From positions 3,184-67,183 of the forward strand of contig JACQVQ010000006.1 of NCBI GenBank assembly GCA_016209685.1: a stretch of 64,000 bases of DNA, given 5' to 3'. Each line of letters starts with the position of its first letter. Within the stretch, counting starts at the first letter, position 1. This document shows positions 2 through 27,420 of this stretch, piece after piece. Under the pieces are notes generated by a model. The model ran no database searches. It worked only from the letters and a program-made list of their open reading frames with translations, and was not told the DNA's origin. Both the position numbers and the translations under genes were made by a program. The DNA comes from Planctomycetota bacterium. GTDB taxonomy: Bacteria; Planctomycetota; Brocadiia; Brocadiales; Bathyanammoxibiaceae.

Positions 2-295
2 GTGTTCAGCGGGGCCTTGCCATTTTACAACCCCGCGTCTCTGGCGGCAGAGGAGCTAGAAAAGGTTCATATGGACATAGAAGGTATGACCTGCGATGGT
101 TGTGCTGAAGAAATCAAGGCTAAACTGAGTGAACTGCCGGAAGTAGAGGAGGGCACTATCAGCTGGAAGAAGGGCACTGCGGATGTCAAAGTTAATAAAG
201 GTTCAGACCACAAGGCCCTTACTAAAGCCGTTGAAGATGCCGGGTTTAAGGTTACCTCTTTGGAATGTGAGTGCAAGGGCAAAGGCTCGAAGTAA
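2..295 (+). CDS. Heavy-metal-associated (HMA, MerP/CopZ-like) domain protein; 5' end outside the window
   Basis: The ORF is open to the window edge. It has a GMTCDGC metal-binding loop, an HMA-like remainder and a CECKGKGSK tail. It is a paralog of 488..835, and the pre-domain segment PFYNPASLAAEELE matches PFCTPASLAAEELE. Confidence 0.8.
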   Translation: MFSGALPFYNPASLAAEELEKVHMDIEGMTCDGCAEEIKAKLSELPEVEEGTISWKKGTADVKVNKGSDHKALTKAVEDAGFKVTSLECECKGKGSK

Positions 296-487: not shown

Positions 488-835
488 ATGAAAACGGTTG
501 GAAAGGTATTGGTTCTTACCCTTGCAGTGTCACTGGTGGGAATGGTGTCTGGCGGGGTCCTGCCATTTTGCACCCCCGCATCCCTGGCGGCAGAGGAGCT
601 GGAACAGGTCCATATGAAGGTGAACGGTATGACCTGCGGTGCTTGTGCGGCCAAAATCAAGTCTAATCTGACCAAGCTACCTGAGGTAAAAGAGGCCGAC
701 GTAAACTCTAATAAGGGGACTGCAGATATTAGAGTTGCAAAAGGCTCAAACCACATGGCCCTTGCGAAAGCCGTGCAAGATGCAGGTTTTACAGTCTCCT
801 CCGTTGAGTGCGAATGTAATAAGGGCAAGAAATAG
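488..835 (+). CDS. Secreted HMA (MerP/CopZ-like) metal-binding protein
   Basis: The RBS aaaggaga lies upstream of the ATG. The N-terminal hydrophobic signal is VLVLTLAVSLVGMV. It has a GMTCGAC loop and a C-terminal CECNKGKK tail. Confidence 0.85.
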   Translation: MKTVGKVLVLTLAVSLVGMVSGGVLPFCTPASLAAEELEQVHMKVNGMTCGACAAKIKSNLTKLPEVKEADVNSNKGTADIRVAKGSNHMALAKAVQDAGFTVSSVECECNKGKK

Positions 836-938: not shown

Positions 939-975
939 TCCACGAGGCAGACTTTGTGAATGGGAGATGTAAAAA

Positions 976-2052
976 ATGCCTTTTGCCGCTGTAACAGTGT
1001 TGCTCACTTGCATCCTCGCATTCCCAGTCTGTTCCCAGGCCATCAGTATTGACCCCAAGGAGATATTATCTGTCGTACCTGAGGATGCCGTAAGGTCTAT
1101 AGACCACCCCAGATTTCTCCAACTGCCTGAGGCAGATGAGCAGATGTCGGATAAGGAGCCTGTCATAGGCATAAAGATAGGCAATGAAGCAAAGGCCTAT
1201 CCTGTTTACCTCCTTAGCGCCCACGAGATAGTCAACGACTCAATTGCTGGTACGGGCGTCGTTGTCACGTGGTGACCCCTCTGCTTTACTGGGGTGGTCT
1301 ACTCCAGAAATATAGACAGCGAAACGCTGGAGTTTGGAGTCTCAGGAAAGCTCTTATGGAATGCACTGCTCATGTTTGACCGCCAGACTCACTCCCTATG
1401 GACTCATATCACAGGGGAGGCCATATCCGGGAAGCTGAAGGGCAAGGCCTTAAAAGAGCTCCCTTCCACCCATACCACCTGGCAGGAGTGGAAAAAGGCG
1501 AACCCCACCACCCTTATATTGTCAAAGGACGATGGCAGTGGGAGGAGATACAATAAAGACCCTTACGAAGCCTATTACCAAGACCCATTAAAGATAGGGC
1601 TGACACCCCAAAAGCATCCGGACGTAAGAATACCCCCAAAGGATCAAGTGGTGGGAATCAAACTAGGAGAAGAGGCCAAAGCCTTTCCCTTTAGATACAT
1701 GGGCAATTTCTCAATAATTAATGACCGCCTTGGTGAGGTGAGAATCGTAGTAATCTACTCCAAAGGAAGAAAGACTGCCATAGTTTTTAATAGGACAGTA
1801 GATGGCAGGGACCTTTCCTTTGAGAAAGCGGAGGATGCTGGGGATTCCTATATGAGAGACAAAGAGACGAACACCCTATGGCTCGTCTTGACAGGTGAGG
1901 CGGTAGAGGGCGGACTCAAGGGCAAAAACCTTCAGCAAATACCCATCATGGTGTCGTTCTGGTTTGCCTGGATTGATTATTTTCCAGAGACAAAGGTCTT
2001 TCAAGACGCAGAACAATCCACACAAGATAACCTCCAAAACCTGGCAAGATGA
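976..2052 (+). CDS. DUF3179 family protein, predicted selenoprotein (in-frame UGA at 1273..1275 read as Sec)
   Basis: ORFs 976..1275 and 1294..2052 are in the same frame with no other stop between them. The joined sequence ...IAGTGVVVTW-U-PLCFTGVVYSRNIDSETLEFGVSGKLLWNALLMFDRQTHSLW puts UGA exactly where DUF3179 proteins carry the first Cys of their conserved CPLC motif. An N-terminal signal peptide is present and a hairpin follows the UGA. Confidence 0.8.
1289..1307 (+). promoter_or_regulatory. Candidate bacterial SECIS hairpin for UGA 1273
   Basis: CUGGGGU-GGUCU-ACUCCAG forms a 7-bp stem with a GGUCU loop, starting 13 nt after the UGA. As recalled, the loop resembles the E. coli fdhF SECIS apical loop. 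Confidence 0.55.
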
Positions 2053-2966
2053 AAGGAGCGGTCAGCGTGGAGCTATATATTAAGGTCCTTTTTGGTCTTT
2101 TTATTGTATTAAGTTGTGATGGAGTTGCCCTTGCTAGTGAGACAAGTTATGAAGAAATGCGTAGATTAACCCTCCTCTCCGACTCTTTGATACAGGAGAT
2201 TGAGGCATTGCGGGCAGAACTCAGGTTAGGAGGTGGGCTCCATCTTGAGACGGAGAGGGCTATTCAGAGTTGGGTTGATTGGGCTAGGTCAAACTTCAAT
2301 GCTGGCAACAAGCGGCTCGACCTATATAAGACCATAGATGTGCTGAGAGATAAGAAGCTGGCCCTAGAAAGGCTTCTTTCGGTACGAAATGGAACCATGG
2401 ACCTATCGGGGTTAATAGTAAGTGAGGAGGATATACTCCCTTATGAAGACCTTCATAACTTGCACATTGTCGATGGCATAATCTTGTCGGGGTCCCAACC
2501 TACAGAAAGCGGTTACAGATACCTCAAGAAAAAAGGTGTTACTACCGTGATAAACTGGCGAAGAGAGGATGACAGTGAGAAAAAAATGGTAACGGATTTA
2601 GGTCTCAAATATTATTATATCCCCATAACACCTGCCCATCCTCCTAGTGAAAAGCAGGTAGGAGAGTTTCTTCTAATAATTGAGGAGGTGCGGAGCAAGG
2701 GTGAAAAGTTGTATCATCACTGCTTGCATGGTGTGGGGAGATGTTTTACAGCGAACGCTGCTTATCTTATTATAAGCAGGGGAATGCCGGCAGAAGAGGC
2801 TATAAGGGAGGGCAAAAACCTGGCCAATTGCTGGCCTATAGAGCAAGAAGAAAAGTTGAAAGAGCAGGGGTTCCATTTGGGAGAATCTGGTTTATATTCC
2901 TTTACCCCCCAATTTGACTTCCTGCGTAACTTTGAGTTGTTGTTGTCTCGCAGAGGACTTCAATAA
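2049..2966 (+). CDS. Secreted or membrane-anchored protein with a C-terminal Cys-X5-Arg (PTP/DSP-fold) phosphatase-like domain
   Basis: The start overlaps the upstream stop (ATGA). The N-terminal hydrophobic segment is VLFGLFIVLSCDGVALA. The P-loop HCLHGVGRC fits the CX5R motif, preceded by GVTTVINWRRE...YYYIPI, typical of the tyrosine-phosphatase-like family. Confidence 0.6.
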   Translation: MKGAVSVELYIKVLFGLFIVLSCDGVALASETSYEEMRRLTLLSDSLIQEIEALRAELRLGGGLHLETERAIQSWVDWARSNFNAGNKRLDLYKTIDVLRDKKLALERLLSVRNGTMDLSGLIVSEEDILPYEDLHNLHIVDGIILSGSQPTESGYRYLKKKGVTTVINWRREDDSEKKMVTDLGLKYYYIPITPAHPPSEKQVGEFLLIIEEVRSKGEKLYHHCLHGVGRCFTANAAYLIISRGMPAEEAIREGKNLANCWPIEQEEKLKEQGFHLGESGLYSFTPQFDFLRNFELLLSRRGLQ

Positions 2967-3011: not shown

Positions 3012-5480
3012 ATGATATCAAGCCCAATAAAAGAGACCTCCATCCTTTACTCGCCTGATTACCATCGCTACAGCGTTGATAATTTAGCAATTCTACTTGA
3101 CCAGGAAGGCCCTAACTGGATAGGCGCCGATGCCCGTGGGGCAGAGATAATTGGCCTTCTTGATGGTAAAACCCCTTTAGGGGAGGTCGTCAGAACTTAT
3201 TCCTCAAGATACACGATGGAGAGCCCAAAGGCTTGGCTCCACGTCTATTCTTTTATAAGAGATGCCCTCAGACATCAGTTTGTATCTACTCAGCCTTTTC
3301 AAAGGGATAGTTACCCAGGCAGAGGTGCCTTCCTCTCTCTGAACGGGCTAAAAGAATTGTGGATTCATACCAACAACTCATGCAACCTTAGGTGCGCCCA
3401 TTGCCTGGTGGAGTCTTCTTCCTCCGGTGAATATGGGCTTTCTACTAGTGAACTGGCAGAGTTAATCCACCAGGCCAAGTCCCTGGGCGTTTCTCAGTTC
3501 TATTTCACAGGAGGAGAGCCTTTCCTAAGACCGGACCTCTTTCAGCTCTGCTCTTTCGCCATTGCCGGGGGGTCCAATGTAACCATTCTCACTAATGGTA
3601 CATTGATAAACAAAGAGACAGTAAAATGGCTAAATGCCCTTCCCCCAGGCTCAGTCAGGTTGCAGATAAGCCTGGACGGTTCTAAACCAGAGGTCAATGA
3701 CCCTATAAGGGGAAGGGGTAGCTTTGAAAGCATCCTTAGAGGCATCGGGGAGGCAGTACACGCAGGTCTTAGTCCCACTGTGGCTACAGTGCTTCTGCCA
3801 GAAAATTTGCATGACCTGCCAGAACTGCCAAGACTGCTCCACAATCTTGGTGTAACCACACATCACCTCCTTTACCCCCACCGAAGAGGGCGGGCCCTTC
3901 AAGCCCTGGGACAGCCCTCCATTGCGGAGCTGACAGAGGCCATATTTAGGGCAAGGGCGATGGCTTCGGAGTTAGGCCTAAGCATAGACAATTTTTCAGT
4001 CCTGGCTGACCGCCTCCATGCACCAAGATTTACCCAATTTGATTTAAGTACTGCCTGCTGGGATAGTCTCTGCGTCTATTCAAATGGAGAGGTTTATCCC
4101 TCCGCTGTATTCGCCGGCCATAAGGCCCTCTGTTGCGGCAATATAAGAGAGCGTTCGCTAGAGGAAATATGGCGCAGCAGTCCTACCTGTCAACTGGTAC
4201 GTTCTGCCACACTTCAGGATAAGTCCCACTGTCGGGCCTGTACTATTAAGTTCCTCTGTGGCGGTGGGGACATAGAATACGCCTACTTCGCCTCCCAGGC
4301 CAATCTCTTGGGTTTAGACCCTTACTGTGAGCTTTATAAAGAGATAATCTTCTGCCTGCTAAAGGAGTGGGTACAGGAGGCCCAAAGGAATTTAAATAGT
4401 GGTTCAAACCTCGATGCCCCCAGGGTCTATCTTGGTATGGGGGAGGGGGGTTTTTGCTGCCCGGAAGAAGCCACTCAGGCTGACGGGCCCTGGGTAAGGA
4501 CCATCCGCACTAATTGTACGGCCGGGCTGGATCGGGGACTCAAGCGCCAGGGACTACAGCAGTTCTATGCCCAGGCAGCAAAGCAACCTCAACAGGAACT
4601 CTGTTGCCCCTCCGCTTATCCCCCTGAGGAGACCCAACATGTCCCGCAGGAAGCCATAGAGAGGTTCTATGGATGTGGTGGCCCCCTGACCCTGGCGGGG
4701 TTGAGTCCGGGCGAGACCGTGCTTGACCTCGGCTCGGGAGCAGGCATGGATTGCTTTCTGGCCGCAAAAAAGGTGGGCCCTAATGGAAGGGTTTTCGGCC
4801 TGGACATGACGGATACCATGCTCCAGATATCTATGGAATACAAAGGCAAGGTCTCAGACAACTTGGGCTATGATGTAGTAAGGTTTATAAAGGGCTTCTT
4901 GGAGGAAATACCCTTTCGCTCAAGCTCGGCGGACCTGGTGATTTCCAACTGTGTAACAAACCTTTCTGCAGATAAAAGGAAGGTGTTTTCGGAGATATGG
5001 CGAGTGCTGAAAGACCAGGGCCGCTTTGTTATCTCAGACATTGTCTCAGAGACGGAGGTCCCCACCCGTTTTCGCTCCGACAAGCTCCTCTGGGGGCAAT
5101 GTCTGGCAGGGGCCCTTACGGAAGAAGAATTCCTCTGCTATCTTGAACAGGCGGGCTTCCGTGGCATTGAGATATTACATAGGCGCTACTGGAAGACGCT
5201 GGAGGGTTGCAGCTTTTTCTCCATTACCCTTCGTGGGTACAAACTTCAAGGGGCTGAACAGTGCTCCTACGATGGGCATGCGGCCATGTACTGTGGTCCC
5301 TTTAAGGCCGTGCTGGATGAAGAGGGCCACCTCTTCCCAAGGGGGGAAGCCGTTGAGGTGTGTACGGATACCGCAGAAAGACTCCAGAGGCCCCCTTATT
5401 CAAGGGCCTTTGTCATTTGCAGAACTGAACAACCTGAGGGCCCCCCCGCCAATTGTCATTCTCAGGAAAAGTGTTGCTAG
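3012..5480 (+). CDS. Fusion protein: PqqD/RRE-like N-domain + radical SAM core + SPASM domain + ArsM/AS3MT-type SAM-dependent As(III) methyltransferase domain
   Basis: A single 822-aa ORF with these motifs:
- PqqD-like: [34 protein letters not shown].
- Radical SAM: CNLRCAHC.
- SPASM: [14 protein letters not shown] plus a later DPYC.
- ArsM hallmarks: [43 protein letters not shown]. These match the human AS3MT motifs YYGCG, LDLGSGSGRDC, VVSNCVINL and LWGECLGGAL. Confidence 0.85.
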
Positions 5481-5667: not shown

Positions 5668-6156
5668 ATGCGCAACCTGTTTTCTGCCCTTTGTGTTTCG
5701 GTCCTTCTTTTATCGCTTTTTCTATCAGCTCCAGTGGAAGGACAAGAGGTTAAGACAATCGGTCTTAAGGAGTTTAATGCCCTTCTGGCAGCCAGCAAGG
5801 GAAAGGTAGTGGTTCTGGACTTCTGGGCTACTTTCTGACCCTCCTGCCGGAGGGCGGTGCCCTTCCTAAACCAGATGTACGAGACGTACAAAGGCCAAGG
5901 TTTTGAAATAATTGCCCTTTCCATAGAGGGAAGTAACGTAGAGGGAGTAAGAGCCTTTTCAAAGAAGGCAGGGATAAAGTATCCCGTCTTTATGGCAGAA
6001 GTAGACCTTCTGGAGAAGTACGGTATCCAGTACATCCCTCACCACGTCTTTATAGACAAGAAGGGGACACAGAGGCACGAAGAGACGGGCTTTTCTGAGG
6101 CAGGCGGGACGGCGTTTGAGACGAGGATTAAGGAGTTACTGAAGGAAGGTGGTTGA
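5668..6156 (+). CDS. Secreted TlpA/ResA-like thioredoxin-fold protein, predicted selenoprotein (UGA 5836..5838 as Sec; U-P-S-C redox motif)
   Basis: The RBS agaggaga lies before the ATG at 5668. The signal peptide is MRNLFSALCVSVLLLSLFLSAPVEG. ORFs 5578..5838 and 5857..6156 share a frame. The joined sequence VVVLDFWATF-U-PSCRRAVPFLNQMY matches the FWATWCPPC region of TlpA-like proteins, with UGA at the first Cys. Confidence 0.8.
5849..5865 (+). promoter_or_regulatory. Candidate SECIS hairpin for UGA 5836
   Basis: GGAGGGC-GGU-GCCCUUC forms a 7-bp stem (one G-U pair) with a GGU loop, starting 10 nt after the UGA. It is identical in the paralog at 9626..9642. Confidence 0.6.
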
Positions 6157-6184: not shown

Positions 6185-6799
6185 ATGACTCTGGCAAAGA
6201 ACCTCTTAATATTTGTCAAGTATCCCACCCCAGGAAAGGTCAAGACCCGCCTGGGTAGGGCGCTTGGCCCTGAGACAGCGGCCAGTCTCTACCGCAGTAT
6301 GGCAGAGGGTATCATAAAAAGATTGGCCCCGCTAACACGTCACTACTTTGATACCACCATCTTTTATCACCCTCCAGAGAAGGCCTTAGGGTTCAATGCC
6401 TGGTTAGGGCCAGACCTTTCCTACGCCCCCCAACAAGGCAAAGATTTGGGAGAGAGGATGTACAATGCCTTCTTGGCTACCTACCCAAGCCGGACGGTGC
6501 TTATAGGGAGTGATTGTCCGGAAATTACTGTAGAGATAATCCTCCAGGCCTTTCAAGCCCTTGAAAGTTATGATGCAGTCATTGGCCCGGCTATAGACGG
6601 CGGGTATTACCTCATAGGTCTTTCCCATCCTAGGGCTGAGCTATTTCAGGGCGTAGATTGGGGCACCGAAAAGGTCTTTCATCAAACCACCCAAAAGGTG
6701 CAAGCACTTCAACTTTCCTGCCACATTCTACCAACCCTGAGAGATGTAGACGCCCCGGAGGACATTCATGTCTTTTTACCATATCTAACAAGTGGGTGA
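6185..6799 (+). CDS. DUF2064 / TIGR04282-like nucleotidyl- or glycosyltransferase-fold protein (the family annotated as arsenosugar-biosynthesis associated)
   Basis: The N-terminus LLIFVKYPTPGKVKTRLGRALGPETAASLY and the later GSDCPEIT...VIGPAIDGGYYLIGL...VDWGTEKV match my memory of the DUF2064 consensus. Confidence 0.7.
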   Translation: MTLAKNLLIFVKYPTPGKVKTRLGRALGPETAASLYRSMAEGIIKRLAPLTRHYFDTTIFYHPPEKALGFNAWLGPDLSYAPQQGKDLGERMYNAFLATYPSRTVLIGSDCPEITVEIILQAFQALESYDAVIGPAIDGGYYLIGLSHPRAELFQGVDWGTEKVFHQTTQKVQALQLSCHILPTLRDVDAPEDIHVFLPYLTSG

Positions 6800-7740: not shown

Positions 7741-8556
7741 ATGGGAGATATGAGAGTGCACATAAACATCCTTCATTCACTGTTTATCTTTTTAGTATTT
7801 TACTTTTGGTCGTTAACGGCGCCCTGTGAGGGGCAGGAAACAGGTCTCAAAGGAGTGAACATGGATGTTGGATATGAGTTATACGGCCAGGTATTGCAGA
7901 AATACGTGAAAGATGGCACGGTGGCTTATCTGGCCCTAAGGGCTTCTCCCGAAGAACTGGATAAATACCTGTCCTGGTTAGCCCATACAGACCCAGATGC
8001 ACTAGGAACCACCGAGGAAAGACTGTCCTTCTGGATTAACGCCTACAATGCCTTTGTCCTTAAGGGAGTTTTAGACACCCTTCCTGAAAGACCTGCGGAC
8101 ATGGCAGGTTATAGTGTCAAGAAGGTTAAGGGCTTTTTTACTCATAGAAAATTTGTAGTGGGTGGAAGGTCTTATTCACTAGACGATATAGAAAACGATG
8201 TCCTCAGGAGTATGTTTAAAGACCCACGAGTGCACTTTTCCATAGTATGTGCCTCCGAGAGTTGCCCGGTACTGCAAAGCAAGGCCTTCCGTGCTGGGGA
8301 TATCCAAAGCCGTCTAGATGAGGCGACAAAGAGGTTCTTTGCTAGCGAAAACAGATTCAAAATAGACCGCGAAAATAAAGTAGTCTACCTCTCGCCGATA
8401 TTCCGATGGTTTAAGAAAGATTTTGAACAGGCCAAAGGGTCTCTTTACGACTTTATTGCAGACTATCTGGAGAACGAGGAAGACAGGGCCTTCATCAAAA
8501 AGGGAGACTTTACAATAGAGTATCTGGAGTACGACTGGAGCCTGAATATCAGATAG
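7741..8556 (+). CDS. DUF547 domain protein (secreted)
   Basis: FWINAYNAFVL ... VVGGRSYSLDDIENDVLR ... DPRVHFSIVCASESCPVL matches the DUF547 consensus as recalled. An N-terminal hydrophobic signal is present. Confidence 0.75.
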   Translation: MGDMRVHINILHSLFIFLVFYFWSLTAPCEGQETGLKGVNMDVGYELYGQVLQKYVKDGTVAYLALRASPEELDKYLSWLAHTDPDALGTTEERLSFWINAYNAFVLKGVLDTLPERPADMAGYSVKKVKGFFTHRKFVVGGRSYSLDDIENDVLRSMFKDPRVHFSIVCASESCPVLQSKAFRAGDIQSRLDEATKRFFASENRFKIDRENKVVYLSPIFRWFKKDFEQAKGSLYDFIADYLENEEDRAFIKKGDFTIEYLEYDWSLNIR

Positions 8557-8681: not shown

Positions 8682-9383
8682 GTGGCTAAAGATAATGCCG
8701 CTTCTCGGATACCAAAGGTCTCCATAATCATTCCTACATTACAGGAAGAAAATACAATAGAAAAGACACTCCTCAACCTAAGGAAGCAGGGGAATAGCCA
8801 TGAGGTCACTGTTGTGGATGGCGGCAGCACTGACTCTACCGTGGATATAGCCAGCCGTTATGCCAGGGTGATTAAAGGGCCGCCGGGTCGGGCCAGGCAG
8901 ATGAACCTGGGGGCCAGCCACGCCAGGGGAAAGATATTATTATTTCTCCATGCCGATACCATACTGCCTGAGGGGGCTGTAGACAAGGTTTGTAAAGCAA
9001 TCCAGCGGCCGGGGATAGTCGGTGGCTGTTTCAGCCTGGCATTTGACCCCCCTCACTCATTCCTTTGTTTCATTAGCCTCTTTACACACCTGCACTGGTG
9101 GTGGGTTCCATATGGAGACCAGGCATTCTTTGCTACTGCTGAGGCCTTTAACACCCTAGGGGGCTACCGGGACCTGGCAATAATGGAAGATATGGAGTTC
9201 TTCAAGAGACTTAAGAATTTAGGTAAGGTGTGTATTATCCAAGACCCAGTTATAACCTCCTCCAGGAGATTCTTAAAAAAGGGTGTATATAGACAGACTC
9301 TTCTTAACCTACTAATTTATTTAGGTTATTTATGCGGGCTAAAAGCGGATAGGTTCAAAAAGTGGTACGGAACTGTTAGATAA
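8682..9383 (+). CDS. Family-2 glycosyltransferase, TIGR04283-like (the family annotated as arsenosugar-biosynthesis associated)
   Basis: GTG start. Motifs VSIIIPTLQEENTI, VTVVDGGSTDSTV, GRARQMNLGA, LLFLHADTILP, YGDQAFF and IMEDMEF fit the GT2 / TIGR04283 pattern as recalled. Confidence 0.7.
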   Translation: MAKDNAASRIPKVSIIIPTLQEENTIEKTLLNLRKQGNSHEVTVVDGGSTDSTVDIASRYARVIKGPPGRARQMNLGASHARGKILLFLHADTILPEGAVDKVCKAIQRPGIVGGCFSLAFDPPHSFLCFISLFTHLHWWWVPYGDQAFFATAEAFNTLGGYRDLAIMEDMEFFKRLKNLGKVCIIQDPVITSSRRFLKKGVYRQTLLNLLIYLGYLCGLKADRFKKWYGTVR

Positions 9384-9444: not shown

Positions 9445-9927
9445 ATGCGCCACTTGCCTTCTGTCGTTTGGGTTCCGATACTTTTTTTCTTGCTTTCTCT
9501 GTTAGCTCAAGTAGAGGGGCAAGAAGTTAAGACTATAAACCTTAGGGCCTTAAACGACCTGCTGGGGGACAGACAAGGTAAAGTAGTGGTACTGGACTTC
9601 TGGTTCACTCGCTGACCCCACTGCCGGAGGGCGGTGCCCTTCCTTAACCAGATGTACGATACTTACAAAAACCAGGGCCTTGAGCTAATTGGACTTTCTA
9701 TAGATGAAGATGTAGAGGCCGTTAGGAGCTTTTTAAAAAAGGTGGAGATAAAGTACCCCGTCGTCGTTGCAGATCTGGACATTTCAGAGGAGTATGGAAT
9801 ACAGTTTGTACCGCATCATGTTTTTATAGATAGACAAGGCAAAAAGAGGGCTGAGGAGACAGGTTTTTCTGAGGAGGGGAAGGTAGAGTTCGAAACAAAG
9901 GTAAGGGAGTTACTAAAGGAAAGGTAA
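9445..9927 (+). CDS. Second secreted TlpA-like thioredoxin-fold selenoprotein (UGA 9613..9615 as Sec; U-P-H-C)
   Basis: The RBS aaaggagg lies before the ATG at 9445. I translated 9445..9612 by hand and found no stops: MRHLPSVVWVPILFFLLSLLAQVEGQEVKTINLRALNDLLGDRQGKVVVLDFWFTR. This is followed by UGA and then PHCRRAVPFLNQMY... in frame with ORF 9634..9927. It is a paralog of 5668..6156. Confidence 0.8.
9626..9642 (+). promoter_or_regulatory. Candidate SECIS hairpin for UGA 9613
   Basis: The same 17-nt hairpin, GGAGGGCGGUGCCCUUC, as at 5849..5865. It starts 10 nt after the UGA. Confidence 0.6.
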
Positions 9928-18230: not shown

Positions 18231-19368
18231 AATCTACCTAGACAATAGTACCACCACACGGCTAGACCCCCTGGTACTAGAAGAAATGCTGCCCCTCCTC
18301 CAGGCGGGATGGGGTAGCACCGCCCAGATACACTCCTTTGGCAGGGAGGCAAGAAAGGCCCTGGAAGGGGCCCGCGGCCGTATCGTGCAGACCCTGGGCG
18401 TAATGCCGGAGGAGATAATCTTTACCTGTGGCGGGACGGAGGCAAACAATCTCGCCCTTCTCGGCACGGCCCGCAGTCTGGGTTACAAGGGCCACGTCAT
18501 CACCTCTCAGGTAGAACACCCGTCCGTCCTGGAGACCATAAAGGCACTGCAGGCGGAGGGGCACGATGTTACGCTTCTCCCCGTGGGTAGAGAAGGGCTG
18601 GTTGCCCCGGAGGACGTGAAAAAGGCCATTACTAAAAAAACTTTCCTCATTTCCATACTCTTTGCGGAGGGAGAGACGGGGGCCCTCCAGCCCATAGAAG
18701 AGATTGCCCCTCTGGCTAAGGAAAGGGGCATTTTGTTCCACACTGATGCCTGCCTGGCGGTGGGGAAGGTCCGGCTACCACTGGAAGGGCCTGGCATAGA
18801 CCTCCTCAGCGTATCTGCCCACAAGTTTCACGGCCCTATGGGTGTGGGCGCACTGTTCGTCCGGGCCGGAACCCGGCTCAAGCCCATCTTGTTTGGTGGA
18901 GCGGAGGAGCGGGGGCTCCGCCCGGGCCCTGGTTCCCCCGCCCTGGTCGTGGGTATGGCGAGGGCGATGGAACTAGCCGAAGAACAACTCAACACGGGCA
19001 TCCCAAAACTGCGACTCCTTGAAGGGCAGCTCCTGAACGGTATCAAGGGGGTTCTTGGGGGCGTCCTGCTTAACGGCCCATCCCATGCCCGTCTTCCGGG
19101 CCACTTGTCCCTCTGTTTCCCTGGGCTGGAGGCAGAACCCCTGTTGCTTAGTCTGGACTTAGAAGGGCTGGCCGTTGGTGCCGGAAATCCTTGTGCCTCG
19201 GGGGCCATGGAGGCCGCTACTACCCTCCTGGCTATGGGGCTATCCAGGGAATCGGCCCTGTCTTCCCTGCGCTTTTCTTTATCAAGGTTTAATACCTCCG
19301 CTGAGGTGGTTCGTACCGTGAAGGTGCTCTCCACGGTCACTGCCCGCATGCGGACGGTATGTGTTTGA
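18223..19368 (+). CDS. Cysteine desulfurase (NifS/IscS-like class V aminotransferase)
   Basis: IYLDNSTTT N-terminus, PLP-lysine motif SAHKFHGPMGVGALF, and an active-site Cys in GNPCASGA. The GTG start overlaps the glnD stop, and the stop lies 11 nt before the dnaA ATG. Confidence 0.85.
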   Translation: MNRIYLDNSTTTRLDPLVLEEMLPLLQAGWGSTAQIHSFGREARKALEGARGRIVQTLGVMPEEIIFTCGGTEANNLALLGTARSLGYKGHVITSQVEHPSVLETIKALQAEGHDVTLLPVGREGLVAPEDVKKAITKKTFLISILFAEGETGALQPIEEIAPLAKERGILFHTDACLAVGKVRLPLEGPGIDLLSVSAHKFHGPMGVGALFVRAGTRLKPILFGGAEERGLRPGPGSPALVVGMARAMELAEEQLNTGIPKLRLLEGQLLNGIKGVLGGVLLNGPSHARLPGHLSLCFPGLEAEPLLLSLDLEGLAVGAGNPCASGAMEAATTLLAMGLSRESALSSLRFSLSRFNTSAEVVRTVKVLSTVTARMRTVCV

Positions 19369-19378
19369 GGGTTTAGAC

Positions 19379-20710
19379 ATGGTTCAGGATATTGGTACAA
19401 TCTGGCCTAAAGTTCTTGACGAACTGAAGAATCGGGTAACGGAACAACAATTCAAGACCTGGTTCAGCCACTTAGAACCGGAGGGCCTGCAGGGGGCTAA
19501 AGTAGAACTCCGTGTCCCCGGGCCTATTTACAAGGACTGGCTGGCCCATCGTTATAAACCCCTCCTAGAGGAGGTCTTCTCGTCCGTCTCCCAAGAGCCT
19601 GTACGCATAGCCTTTACACTCAGCAGCGACCCTCCTGCCTCCTCGCTGGGCATCTCCGGAGGAGCGGAGAAGGCGACCCCCGTTCCCCTGCAGGTCTACC
19701 TTAACAAGAGATACACCTTTGAGAATTTCGTTGCGGACCATAGTAACCGTCTGGCACATGCTGCCGCCCTTTCCGTCGTCTCCTCTCCGGGGTACACTTA
19801 TAACCCCCTGTTCATATGCGGCGGCCCCGGTACGGGCAAGAGTCATCTGCTCCAGGCGATATACTTTGCCCTCCTTTCAAAGGGTGCGAAGGTCCTGTAT
19901 ATCCCATGCGATGGTTTCGTCTCCCATTTCGTCTTCGCACTCCGCAACCAACAGGTAGAACGGTTCAGAAAGGCCTACCGGGAGTTAGACGCTCTACTGT
20001 TGGATAACGTAGAGCAACTTGCTAACTCTCCTGCTTCGCGAGAAGAGCTTTTTCATACCTTTAATGCCCTGTTCAACAATCAGAGACAGCTCGTCTTTGC
20101 TGCCGGTTGTTCCCCGGACTCCCTTCCTGGAGTTGAGGCCCGCCTTGTCTCCAGGTTCTCGTGGGGTCTTCTGGCAAGGCTGGAACCTGCGGACACAGAG
20201 ACCCGGGCGGCTATCGTTGGGCGGATGGCCCTTTTCCTCGACCTGCCCCTTTCTAAAGAGGCGGCCTTGTTCCTTGCTGAGAATACCTCCAGCAACATTA
20301 AGGAACTGGAGCGCATCCTGGGGTTCCTTTCTTCTTTGTATCCCTCTGGACACCCCCCTCTCTCCCTACCAGAGGTCAAGGAGCCATTGCTGGGGCTCCT
20401 CCCCACAAAGGGCCATACTGTACATATAGAAGAGATCTTGAGGACGGTTGCTACCTTCTTTAGGATCCCCCGGGTACAACTGCAATCAAAGAGCCGCACT
20501 CGCACCGTCTCTCTTCCTCGTCAGGTTGCGATGTATCTTGCCCGCCGTTTTACCTCCCTGTCCTTGCAAGAGGTCGGGGGATACCTTGGGGGGAGGGACC
20601 ACAGTACAGTAGTCCATGCAGAAAAGAGGATTTTGGCGTTAAAGGCAAGTCGTCCGGACGTAGATAGTCTCATCAGTCAGATAGAGACATTATTACAGGG
20701 GAGGTGTTAG
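19379..20710 (+). CDS. dnaA: Chromosomal replication initiator protein DnaA
   Basis: Motifs IWPKVLDELK...FKTWF, YTFENFV, Walker A GGPGTGKSHL, box VII, and the C-terminal DNA-binding region LPRQVAMYLAR...GGRDHSTVVHA. I chose the ATG at 19379; the maximal ORF starts at GTG 19361. Confidence 0.95.
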   Translation: MVQDIGTIWPKVLDELKNRVTEQQFKTWFSHLEPEGLQGAKVELRVPGPIYKDWLAHRYKPLLEEVFSSVSQEPVRIAFTLSSDPPASSLGISGGAEKATPVPLQVYLNKRYTFENFVADHSNRLAHAAALSVVSSPGYTYNPLFICGGPGTGKSHLLQAIYFALLSKGAKVLYIPCDGFVSHFVFALRNQQVERFRKAYRELDALLLDNVEQLANSPASREELFHTFNALFNNQRQLVFAAGCSPDSLPGVEARLVSRFSWGLLARLEPADTETRAAIVGRMALFLDLPLSKEAALFLAENTSSNIKELERILGFLSSLYPSGHPPLSLPEVKEPLLGLLPTKGHTVHIEEILRTVATFFRIPRVQLQSKSRTRTVSLPRQVAMYLARRFTSLSLQEVGGYLGGRDHSTVVHAEKRILALKASRPDVDSLISQIETLLQGRC

Positions 20711-20981
20711 TACTTTGTTCTTTCTCTGTTGCTTTTCTGTTCTTTCTCTGTCTCCTTTTTTTCTCCCTCTTCTCTCTTTTGTCTCTTTAGGATGTCTTGT
20801 AGCTAGCGGAGGAGCACCTTCTGCCGTTTTTCTAACACACTCTTTCCATTATTAACTCAATAGTTGCACGTGACTTGGGACAAAAACGAAACAAGATTTC
20901 AACATCCCTGGGCTGCCTTAGGGTTAAGAATTAGGTAAAAAGAAACCAAAACTAAATATAAGAAGAGAGAGGATAACAACC
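20711..20981. other. dnaA-dnaN intergenic region; candidate oriC or part of it
   Basis: This is the only sizeable non-coding DNA adjacent to dnaA, since the upstream gene abuts dnaA. It contains a pyrimidine tract and an A+T-rich 3' part (aagaattaggtaaaaagaaaccaaaactaaatataagaag). I could not confirm consensus DnaA boxes by eye. Confidence 0.3.
20713..20788. repeat. Strand-asymmetric polypyrimidine tract with an internal 13-nt direct repeat
   Basis: By hand count, the 76 nt on the + strand contain 70 C/T, 6 G and 0 A. GTTCTTTCTCTGT occurs at 20717..20729 and 20739..20751. Confidence 0.85.
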
Positions 20982-22088
20982 ATGAAACTTTCTTGCCGAA
21001 GATCCGTACTTACGGAAGGACTACAGCTTTTAAGCCATGTGACTTCTGGAACAACAACGAAACCTATTTTACAGGCGGTGAAAATAGAAGCTACCGAAAA
21101 CAAGGCTATCTTGGAGGCAACGGACCTGGAGATTGGGGTCCGGTATCTCTTGGAGCCAGTGGAGGTACAAGAGAAAGGTGTTGTCGTGCTTCAAGAGGGG
21201 AGACTTGCAGAATTACTTCGAGAGTGGCCGGAGGAACAGGTTTGTATGGAGCTGAAGGGGGCAATGTGTCATATCTCAGGGAGAGGGGGGGCGTTCAAGA
21301 TGGTAGGATATGACCCGAAGGAGTTCCCCACAATCCCCGATGTGATAGAAAAAGGGGCAATGGAGATAGAGGCTGGAGAATTAGTAGAGATGATTAGAAA
21401 GGTAGCTTTTGCCTGTGCTAGTGAGAGGGTAAGGCACACGATGACGGGAGTACTGTTTCAGGTAGAAGCAGGCGTCCTAAGGATGGTAGCAACGGACGGA
21501 AGAAGGCTGGCAAGTGCAAGGGAGAAAAAGGCAGTGAGTGGAAGAGTCCCCATGGAGGGAATAGTTCCAAGAAAGGGGATAGAGCAGTTAGCAAGAATTG
21601 CAGAGAGACAGGAAGGAAAGATACGGCTAAAGATGGAGGAGACGCACCTTCTTGCCGCGAGCGATAAAGCCACCCTTTGTGTACAGCTCATAGAAGGACA
21701 GTATCCAAACTATAAGGAGGCCATCCCGGCAAATAACGATAAAAGGGTTGAGGTAGATGCCGAGGTACTTGCGGGGGCCATAAGAAGAGCCTCCATTCTG
21801 ACGACAGAAGAGAGACGCCTCGTGCGGCTAGGGCTACAAAAGGGAGGAATCTCTGTAGAGGTAGAGACCCCGGAGGTAGGAGAGGCAAAGGTAAACATAG
21901 ATGCTGACTATGCAGGAGAGAACTTAGAGATAGGGTTTAATCCAGACTTCCTCCTGGATGCCCTTAAGGCTATTGGGAAGGGAACCGTACACCTGGAGTT
22001 TAAGGAGGCCACCTCATCGGCGGCAATAAAGAGCGGGCAGGACTTTATCTACGTAGTCATGCCAATAAGGCTTACGGAGACAAGCTAG
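20982..22088 (+). CDS. dnaN: DNA polymerase III beta sliding clamp
   Basis: 368 aa with typical N-terminus and length, PILQAVKIEA, the three-domain clamp pattern, and a position directly after dnaA. Confidence 0.93.
   Translation: MKLSCRRSVLTEGLQLLSHVTSGTTTKPILQAVKIEATENKAILEATDLEIGVRYLLEPVEVQEKGVVVLQEGRLAELLREWPEEQVCMELKGAMCHISGRGGAFKMVGYDPKEFPTIPDVIEKGAMEIEAGELVEMIRKVAFACASERVRHTMTGVLFQVEAGVLRMVATDGRRLASAREKKAVSGRVPMEGIVPRKGIEQLARIAERQEGKIRLKMEETHLLAASDKATLCVQLIEGQYPNYKEAIPANNDKRVEVDAEVLAGAIRRASILTTEERRLVRLGLQKGGISVEVETPEVGEAKVNIDADYAGENLEIGFNPDFLLDALKAIGKGTVHLEFKEATSSAAIKSGQDFIYVVMPIRLTETS

Positions 22089-27420
<5,332 letters not shown>

Follow-up and report, generated by a model that had tools for sequence, protein, structure and literature searches.

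A question of decoding is raised by positions 976..2052 on the forward strand of the 64,000-nucleotide (nt) stretch of Planctomycetota DNA analysed here (the window): does the in-frame TGA at 1273..1275 end a short protein, or is it read as selenocysteine (Sec) within a longer protein of the DUF3179 family? The open reading frames (ORFs) 976..1275 and 1294..2052 share one frame and are separated by this TGA only, as the first-pass annotation of the window had stated and as the sequence confirms. The region 976..2052 is a single reading frame with no other internal TGA, and after 1273..1275 it is free of stops until the TGA stop codon at 2050..2052. Judged from the sequence evidence, it is highly probable that 976..2052 is one gene, coding for an exported DUF3179-family selenoprotein and carrying a SECIS (selenocysteine insertion sequence) element. 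The features concerned are:

976..2052, + strand: probable gene for a DUF3179 selenoprotein; 358 sense codons, one of them the UGA for Sec, and the stop codon TGA at 2050..2052
962..966, + strand: possible Shine-Dalgarno sequence GGGAG, read from the sequence, 9 nt 5' of the ATG at 976
976..1041, + strand: probable N-terminal signal peptide (MPFAAVTVLLTCILAFPVCSQA), a hydrophobic stretch judged by eye
1273..1275, + strand: predicted UGA Sec codon, residue 100, in the column where CPLC has its first, invariant Cys
1273..1284, + strand: U-P-L-C motif (Sec100, Cys103), presumably the site of activity or binding; P, L and C do not vary in 81/81 homologs tabulated
1289..1307, + strand: predicted SECIS hairpin with a 7-bp stem (1289..1295 with 1301..1307) and the apical loop GGUCU (1296..1300), with covariation across the family

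The UGA codon and the CPLC motif of DUF3179

Read through the UGA codon, the product has 358 residues (...AGTGVVVTW-U-PLCFTGVVYSRNIDSETLEFGVSGKLLWNALLMFDRQTHSLW...). With C written at the TGA, it matches the Pfam model DUF3179 (PF11376) from end to end (profile 2-292 of 292, residues 37-339, E 4e-94, 315.7 bits, with a gathering cut-off of 27 bits), and therefore the DUF3179 domain spans the TGA without interruption; no NCBIfam model matches the protein. The family-invariant residues of PF11376 (HEIVND, CPLC, FGVSGKL, MxD, W and FWFAW) are all matched in the window protein in alignment A1, the first Cys of CPLC being the TGA, and the protein aligns over its full length with homologs of the Cys form. 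At the N-terminus of DUF3179 homologs there is a signal peptide or a transmembrane helix, and the window protein is probably exported. The GenBank entry for the gene is the 99-residue N-terminal fragment alone (MBI4554453.1, 'DUF3179 domain-containing protein'), and its selenoprotein status is missing from that annotation.

The first-pass annotation had placed the Sec residue at the first Cys of the C-P-L-C motif, and two alignments of full-length DUF3179 homologs, A1 with 17 sequences and A3 with 30, bear this out: C100 and C103 are invariant in both, and the TGA sits on C100. A scan of DUF3179 loci with one genome per species gave 80 loci, 30 of which have TGA at the first codon of CPLC (32 genes, with a pair of copies at each of two loci), while 48 have TGC or TGT at the same codon, so that the search of relatives to which the annotation had pointed finds both forms. 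The sources of the TGA forms are metagenome-assembled genomes (MAGs) of Dehalococcoidia and other Chloroflexota, of Anaerolineales, of Poribacteria, of Nitrospinota and of Acidobacteria. Together with the window gene there are 33 TGA forms, and with the 48 Cys forms these make up the 81 homologs considered below (loci L001-L081). Sec and Cys forms occur in nature at one and the same column (33 TGA versus 48 TGC or TGT), as is expected of a selenoprotein.

By protein search, many entries with a length of 214-255 residues were found, spanning just the C-terminal 60-67% of the query. These short entries start at (M/V)VY..., directly after CPLCFTG, the pattern left when gene callers restart past an in-frame TGA. 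One of them sits on a 3.9-Mb genome contig, where the DNA is split identically (...VSVTW-TGA-PLCYSAIVY...).

Two Dehalococcoidia genomes have two adjacent Sec-DUF3179 paralogs each (L002, at 6214 and 7542; L022, at 6115 and 6871), and every copy has its own hairpin. In the alignment of the 81 homologs, Trp precedes Sec (W-U) in 31/33 Sec forms and Y-(A/S/D)-R almost always follows the hairpin, whereas F/Y-C and F-(D/E)-R take their place in the Cys forms; these residue differences are partly due to the constraint imposed by the hairpin, and the preference for W-U may be phylogenetic. At seven Nitrosopumilus and Nitrososphaerales loci, belonging to ammonia-oxidising archaea (including L062, 6909..7385), a Cys-form DUF3179 is followed by a conserved 159-residue membrane protein with an ...LGCCGWW... 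motif, for which no Pfam match was found.

The first-pass annotation knew of no listing of DUF3179 as a selenoprotein family, which is refuted by two published tables. The table of predicted prokaryotic selenoproteins of Zhang et al. 2022 contains a 'DUF3179 domain-containing protein, pfam11376, UxxC/T' with the representative MBW1804167.1 (PMC9312934), and a 2026 AEM review lists DUF3179 again, with one Sec and the representative MDJ0986319.1 (PMC13188914). Both credit Zhang & Gladyshev 2007 for DUF3179, a study of Olavius algarvensis symbionts that presented new Sec/Cys-pair families with SECIS-like stem-loops under names such as OS_HP1 (PMC1976440). U-P-L-C at residues 100-103 of a PF11376 protein is an instance of the published UxxC/T pattern. 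DUF3179 is an already published selenoprotein family, and the window gene is a further, unannotated member from another lineage. It shares with the published family the Pfam family, the position of Sec as the first residue of U-x-x-C, the existence of Cys homologs and a SECIS-like stem-loop 3' of the UGA. It differs in coming from a Brocadiia-related Planctomycetota MAG, in which it is annotated as a 99-residue truncation, and in a gene context (an extracytoplasmic function (ECF) sigma/anti-sigma pair, two HMA proteins, TlpA-like proteins with Sec, DsbD and a radical SAM-ArsM fusion) that is not described in the papers cited.

The hairpin downstream of the UGA codon

A 7-bp hairpin with a GGUCU loop had been noticed 13 nt past the UGA; its coordinates, 1289..1307, hold, and it covaries in TGA forms. 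Its arms are CUGGGGU (1289..1295) and ACUCCAG (1301..1307), and the gap between the TGA and the hairpin is 1276..1288. In alignment A2, all 33 TGA forms have a 7-bp stem at TGA+16..+22 and TGA+28..+34 enclosing a 5-nt loop, and standard pairs make up 94.8% of the stem cells. Double-sided changes are seen in five of the seven stem pairs (GC/UA, GC/AU, GC/CG, CG/UA/AU and AU/GC), and none of 500 shuffles matches the observed pairing or covariation score. When the 3' arm is slid by 1-3 nt as a control, pairing drops to 25-46%. The same columns of the 48 Cys forms show 41.7% pairing, and none of these sequences has at least 6 of the 7 base pairs. Sec and Cys forms are not told apart by the mean minimum free energy of the 54 nt 3' of the codon (Mann-Whitney p = 0.32); position-specific pairing alone distinguishes them.

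The stem joins codon +6 to codon +10, with the combinations GGC/GCC (Gly/Ala), GCU/AGC (Ala/Ser) and GGA/UCC (Gly/Ser). This covariation is non-synonymous, and therefore the RNA structure is kept through coordinated amino-acid changes. The loop is CGUGU, GGUCU, AGUUU, AGUGU, GGUUU or UGUAU in 32/33 TGA forms, giving the consensus xGUxU with G-U at loop positions 2-3. The closest relatives of the window gene (L082-L084) retain the hairpin, and in L083 one G-U pair of the stem is changed to A-U. Because it is conserved and covarying in TGA forms and absent from Cys forms, the hairpin at 1289..1307 is assigned as a bona fide bacterial SECIS element, to which SelB is predicted to bind.

The SECIS element of fdhF has a loop of the GGUC type, and a UGA-to-loop spacing of about 20 nt is one that bacterial SECIS elements allow. 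The window hairpin resembles the fdhF-type SECIS of E. coli in being a stem-loop within the coding region, in having an apical loop that starts about 20 nt after the UGA and in the conserved G-U of the loop, but it is supported as a 7-bp upper stem only, neither a conserved bulged U nor a long lower stem being demonstrable. An extension of the lower stem by TTT 1285..1287 and AAA 1308..1310 was rejected, its energy being no better (-8.6 vs -9.0 kcal/mol). A conserved apical guanosine is a highlighted feature of predicted bacterial SECIS elements (PMC1976440), and the DUF3179 stem-loop, just 3' of the UGA, has this conserved apical G together with the support of covariation.

Reading of the UGA codon and its alternatives

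In the proposed mechanism, the UGA at 1273..1275 would be decoded as Sec in translation. The hairpin would, as in E. coli, bring SelB-GTP-Sec-tRNA(Sec) to a ribosome with the UGA in its A site, and in the resulting product Sec100-Pro-Leu-Cys103 would replace the family-invariant Cys-Pro-Leu-Cys. There are three in-frame TGAs in about 18,400 sense codons of the window (1273, 5836 and 9613), each at the first Cys of a CxxC motif, and the second and third belong to the following genes:

5668..6156 (start 5632 or 5668), + strand: TlpA/ResA-like thiol:disulfide oxidoreductase with the in-frame TGA 5836..5838, F-U-P-S-C
9445..9927, + strand: second TlpA-like gene with the in-frame TGA 9613..9615, R-U-P-H-C

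The two TlpA-like genes are paralogous and of the exported type, and both have a candidate SECIS hairpin (GGAGGGC-GGU-GCCCUUC, TGA+13..+29, -10.6 kcal/mol). TlpA-like thiol:disulfide interchange proteins are a recognised selenoprotein type (Table 1 of PMC13188914), and the two genes are probably unannotated as Sec genes in the public record. The putative UxxC gene at 5668..6156 is independent evidence for Sec decoding by the organism. TlpA/ResA selenoproteins are like the window DUF3179 protein in being extracytoplasmic and in having Sec for the N-terminal Cys of CxxC, whereas DUF3179 has neither a thioredoxin fold nor a sequence match to the thioredoxin family. Other pairs of ORFs around an in-frame TGA in the six-frame screen were set aside as gene junctions or noise, for example at 24847 (gyrB/gyrA overlap) and 19319 (aminotransferase/dnaA).

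If the TGA at 1273..1275 were a nonsense mutation or a sequencing or assembly error and the locus a pseudogene, the 99-residue GenBank fragment and the splitting of the gene by gene callers would be accounted for, but TGA occurs at the same codon in the 32 other DUF3179 genes from several phyla, both halves are conserved at the level of the full domain, and the covarying hairpin goes with TGA forms only. Three further contigs of independent assembly (L084-L086) encode an identical 99-residue N-terminal product with the same terminal TGA (the nucleotides 3' of the TGA were read, and are identical, in L084 only), and sequencing error is therefore excluded. A general reading of TGA as sense by the organism, as in genetic codes 4 or 25 and without Sec, has nothing in its favour beyond the in-frame TGA itself; against it, TGA terminates 14 of the 50 window genes, and gyrA, gyrB, secDF and groEL, all long housekeeping genes, are intact under table 11. 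Because of this stop usage, the confinement of in-frame TGAs to CxxC motifs and the identity among L084-L086, error, pseudogene and general recoding are excluded, the chance of an error or pseudogene being negligible and that of general recoding practically nil.

It is extremely unlikely that the locus consists of two small genes, one for the 99-residue N-terminal product and another for a 252-residue product restarting at GTG 1294. Gene callers give exactly such fragments, and many database entries begin with (M)VY, but the split falls between W and PLC in the most conserved block of the domain, the Cys-form homologs are single chains, and in an AlphaFold (AF2) model of a Cys homolog the CPLC loop lies within one compact beta domain. 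Read-through of the UGA as a standard amino acid, by near-cognate suppression with Cys or Trp stimulated by the hairpin and without Sec machinery, would fit a window in which that machinery is not seen, and downstream hairpins can stimulate read-through generally. It is nevertheless very unlikely, since the position is always the catalytic-type Cys of CxxC, the classical Sec/Cys signature, since the conserved loop G-U and the spacing from UGA to loop fit SelB-dependent SECIS elements, and since two further candidates with UxxC, both of recognised selenoprotein families, are no more than 9 kb away.

Several observations weigh against an exported DUF3179 selenoprotein with SECIS or against the function proposed for it below. 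The window hairpin taken by itself is modestly above chance and no strong outlier (z -0.65 to -2.3): the stem alone folds at -9.0 kcal/mol, a 30-nt piece folds at -9.5 kcal/mol (z -2.29, with 9/200 shuffles equally good), a 55-nt piece has z -0.65, and single-sequence folding of 43-66-nt pieces prefers to pair the CCCC 3' of the UGA with GGGG, with unimpressive z-scores. Rfam has no match to the hairpin: a search of the whole window at gathering thresholds and one of 1200..1400 at E<=10 gave nothing apart from two weak matches due to chance. Neither the genes selA, selB and selD nor a tRNA, tRNA-Sec included, were found in the 64-kb window, and the machinery is inferred for the genome, with indirect support from the two further UxxC TGA genes. 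As to function, the AF2 model is not thioredoxin-like and has no thioredoxin-fold matches in the PDB, and unbiased clustering of neighbours over the 81 loci finds no universal partner and none conserved across most loci.

Predicted structure, neighbourhood and possible function

The modelled protein is P0001, the closest full-length Cys homolog, with 57% identity to the window protein. The model is confident (pLDDT 86, pTM 0.80) and shows two tandem beta-rich domains with the CPLC loop inside the first. A Foldseek search against the PDB finds only local resemblance, over about 95 residues, to Rieske ferredoxins and NirD-like proteins (prob 0.96-1.0, TM-score to target about 0.5, weak E-values of 0.03-0.2). 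This local likeness to the Rieske/NirD beta fold is not accompanied by the ligands of a Rieske [2Fe-2S] protein: H...U/CxxC is present, but the Cys-x-His and Cys-x-x-His set is absent from DUF3179, and no Fe-S cluster is implied. The spacing H83-x16-U100-x-x-C103 recalls the CxH...CxxH loops of Rieske proteins, and we take it as a lead only. The window protein has no thioredoxin match in Pfam or NCBIfam, and the homolog P0043 is a fusion of a thioredoxin-like domain with DUF3179.

Three neighbouring genes bear on the proposed function:

2..295, + strand: HMA (CopZ/MerP-like) protein gene, PF00403, cut by the window start; in an operon-like array upstream of DUF3179
488..835, + strand: second exported HMA protein gene, PF00403, immediately upstream; its orthologs adjoin Sec-DUF3179 in L082 and L083
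10399..11889, + strand: DsbD-like protein (DsbD_TM plus thioredoxin domain), likely electron source for exported thiol/selenol proteins

Both HMA proteins have an MTCxxC site and an unusual Cys-rich C-terminal tail (...LECECKGKGSK in 2..295 and ...VECECNKGKK in 488..835), and the N-terminus of the protein at 488..835 is signal-peptide-like. An array of ECF sigma factor, zf-HC2 anti-sigma factor, HMA, HMA and DUF3179(Sec) is common to L082, L083 and L084, with one or two exported HMA proteins after the sigma/anti-sigma pair in this clade. The ECF sigma and zf-HC2 (ZAS-type) anti-sigma genes lie at 5715..7054 in L082, 7346..8685 in L083 and 1371..2710 in L084. The DUF3179 fragment of L084 is identical to that of the window, with the sigma pair 5' of the first HMA gene, and therefore the pair of the window should lie just beyond its 5' end. 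In L082 there is a Czc-like RND pump on the upstream side and, downstream, a glutaredoxin, and in L083 a DsbD that is 81% identical to the window DsbD is directly 3' of Sec-DUF3179. A cytochrome P460 gene is found near the array in L082 and L084. Across the loci, the recurring neighbours are CcdA/DsbD_TM (9 loci), ECF sigma (7) and redoxin/TlpA (4-5).

In the window, DUF3179 is followed by genes for a dual-specificity phosphatase-like protein, a radical-SAM/SPASM-ArsM fusion, TlpA(U), TIGR04282, DUF547, TIGR04283, the second TlpA(U) and DsbD. The phosphatase-like gene (2049..2966) encodes 305 residues, with a hydrophobic segment at the N-terminus and a domain of the dual-specificity/PTP-like phosphatase kind. 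The stop codon of DUF3179 and the start of this gene overlap (ATGA 2049..2052), which suggests translational coupling. Searches by tblastn with the window neighbours place the phosphatase, TIGR04282, TIGR04283 and a 276-residue protein beside no other DUF3179 locus. The fusion at 3012..5480 is an 822-residue protein with a PqqD-like N-terminus, radical SAM/SPASM and ArsM-like methyltransferase parts and the end ...EKCC, and it is accompanied by the TIGR04282 and TIGR04283 'arsenosugar biosynthesis glycosyltransferases' and the DUF547 protein (6185..6799, 7741..8556, 8682..9383). These are the usual partners of the radical SAM enzyme ArsS (TIGR04167), whose place is taken in the window by a SPASM-type radical SAM enzyme fused to ArsM. 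A radical SAM-SPASM-ArsM fusion 44% identical to that of the window also follows the Acidobacteria Sec form L052 (4670..7534). The window cluster may encode a variant pathway of the organo-arsenic or organo-metalloid type. Farther downstream, dnaA, dnaN, gyrB and gyrA stand in a row at 19361..27420, and the window adjoins the region of the chromosomal replication origin. Of the window proteins looked up, several have identical counterparts in Candidatus Tripitaka californicus (Brocadiia, Hypogeohydatales).

A redox or metal(loid)-binding role, as the first-pass annotation drew from the UxxC pair, is a reasonable suggestion and fits the neighbourhood, and it is the generic inference already drawn for UxxC selenoproteins (PMC9312934, PMC13188914). 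In the cell envelope, the Sec100/Cys103 pair would most likely serve as a redox-active selenenylsulfide or bind soft metal(loid)s, and the neighbouring TlpA-like proteins, which may themselves contain Sec, would keep it reduced together with DsbD. DUF3179 would act with the two upstream metallochaperone-like HMA proteins under the ECF sigma/zinc-finger anti-sigma pair. With moderate to low confidence, the gene context points to an envelope protein whose Sec/Cys-x-x-Cys pair is redox-active or binds soft metal(loid)s and is maintained by a DsbD-TlpA relay, the TlpA-like Sec protein of 5668..6156 being a possible reductant. The window protein is like Sec-containing heavy-metal-binding proteins (UxxC HMA domains of cation-transporting ATPases, the UxxU family NF041115 and the MerT/CopZ selenoprotein) in having Sec in a CxxC-type soft-metal motif, and its context is alike in the HMA genes of the window and the Czc-like RND pump of L082, but DUF3179 belongs to another fold and family, and its metal binding is hypothesised.

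A more specific proposal, which we regard as doubtful, is that DUF3179 is an extracytoplasmic, Rieske-fold-derived handler of soft metal(loid)s with a site made of His83, Sec or Cys100 and Cys103. Such a site may accept or reduce Cu, Hg, As or Se from the adjacent exported HMA proteins, and it may be recycled by TlpA/DsbD and induced by the dedicated ECF sigma/ZAS anti-sigma pair. The linkage to the radical SAM/SPASM-ArsM fusion in the Planctomycetota lineage and in an Acidobacterium, together with TIGR04282/TIGR04283, hints at an organo-metalloid pathway leading from the periplasm to the cytoplasm.

Public records mis-annotate the window gene as a 99-residue fragment and an unlinked C-terminal ORF, and the same split affects dozens of DUF3179 genes from MAGs of Chloroflexota, Poribacteria, Nitrospinota and Acidobacteria, so that correcting them would improve selenoproteome counts. 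A covariance model could be started from the family-specific set of 33 SECIS sequences with its codon-codon covariation. For this uncharacterised family, the range of hypotheses is reduced by the Sec/Cys pair, by the thiol-redox and HMA neighbours that recur and by the Rieske-like fold, and the Rieske-derived metal(loid) proposal, if true, would provide the first function for a large DUF.

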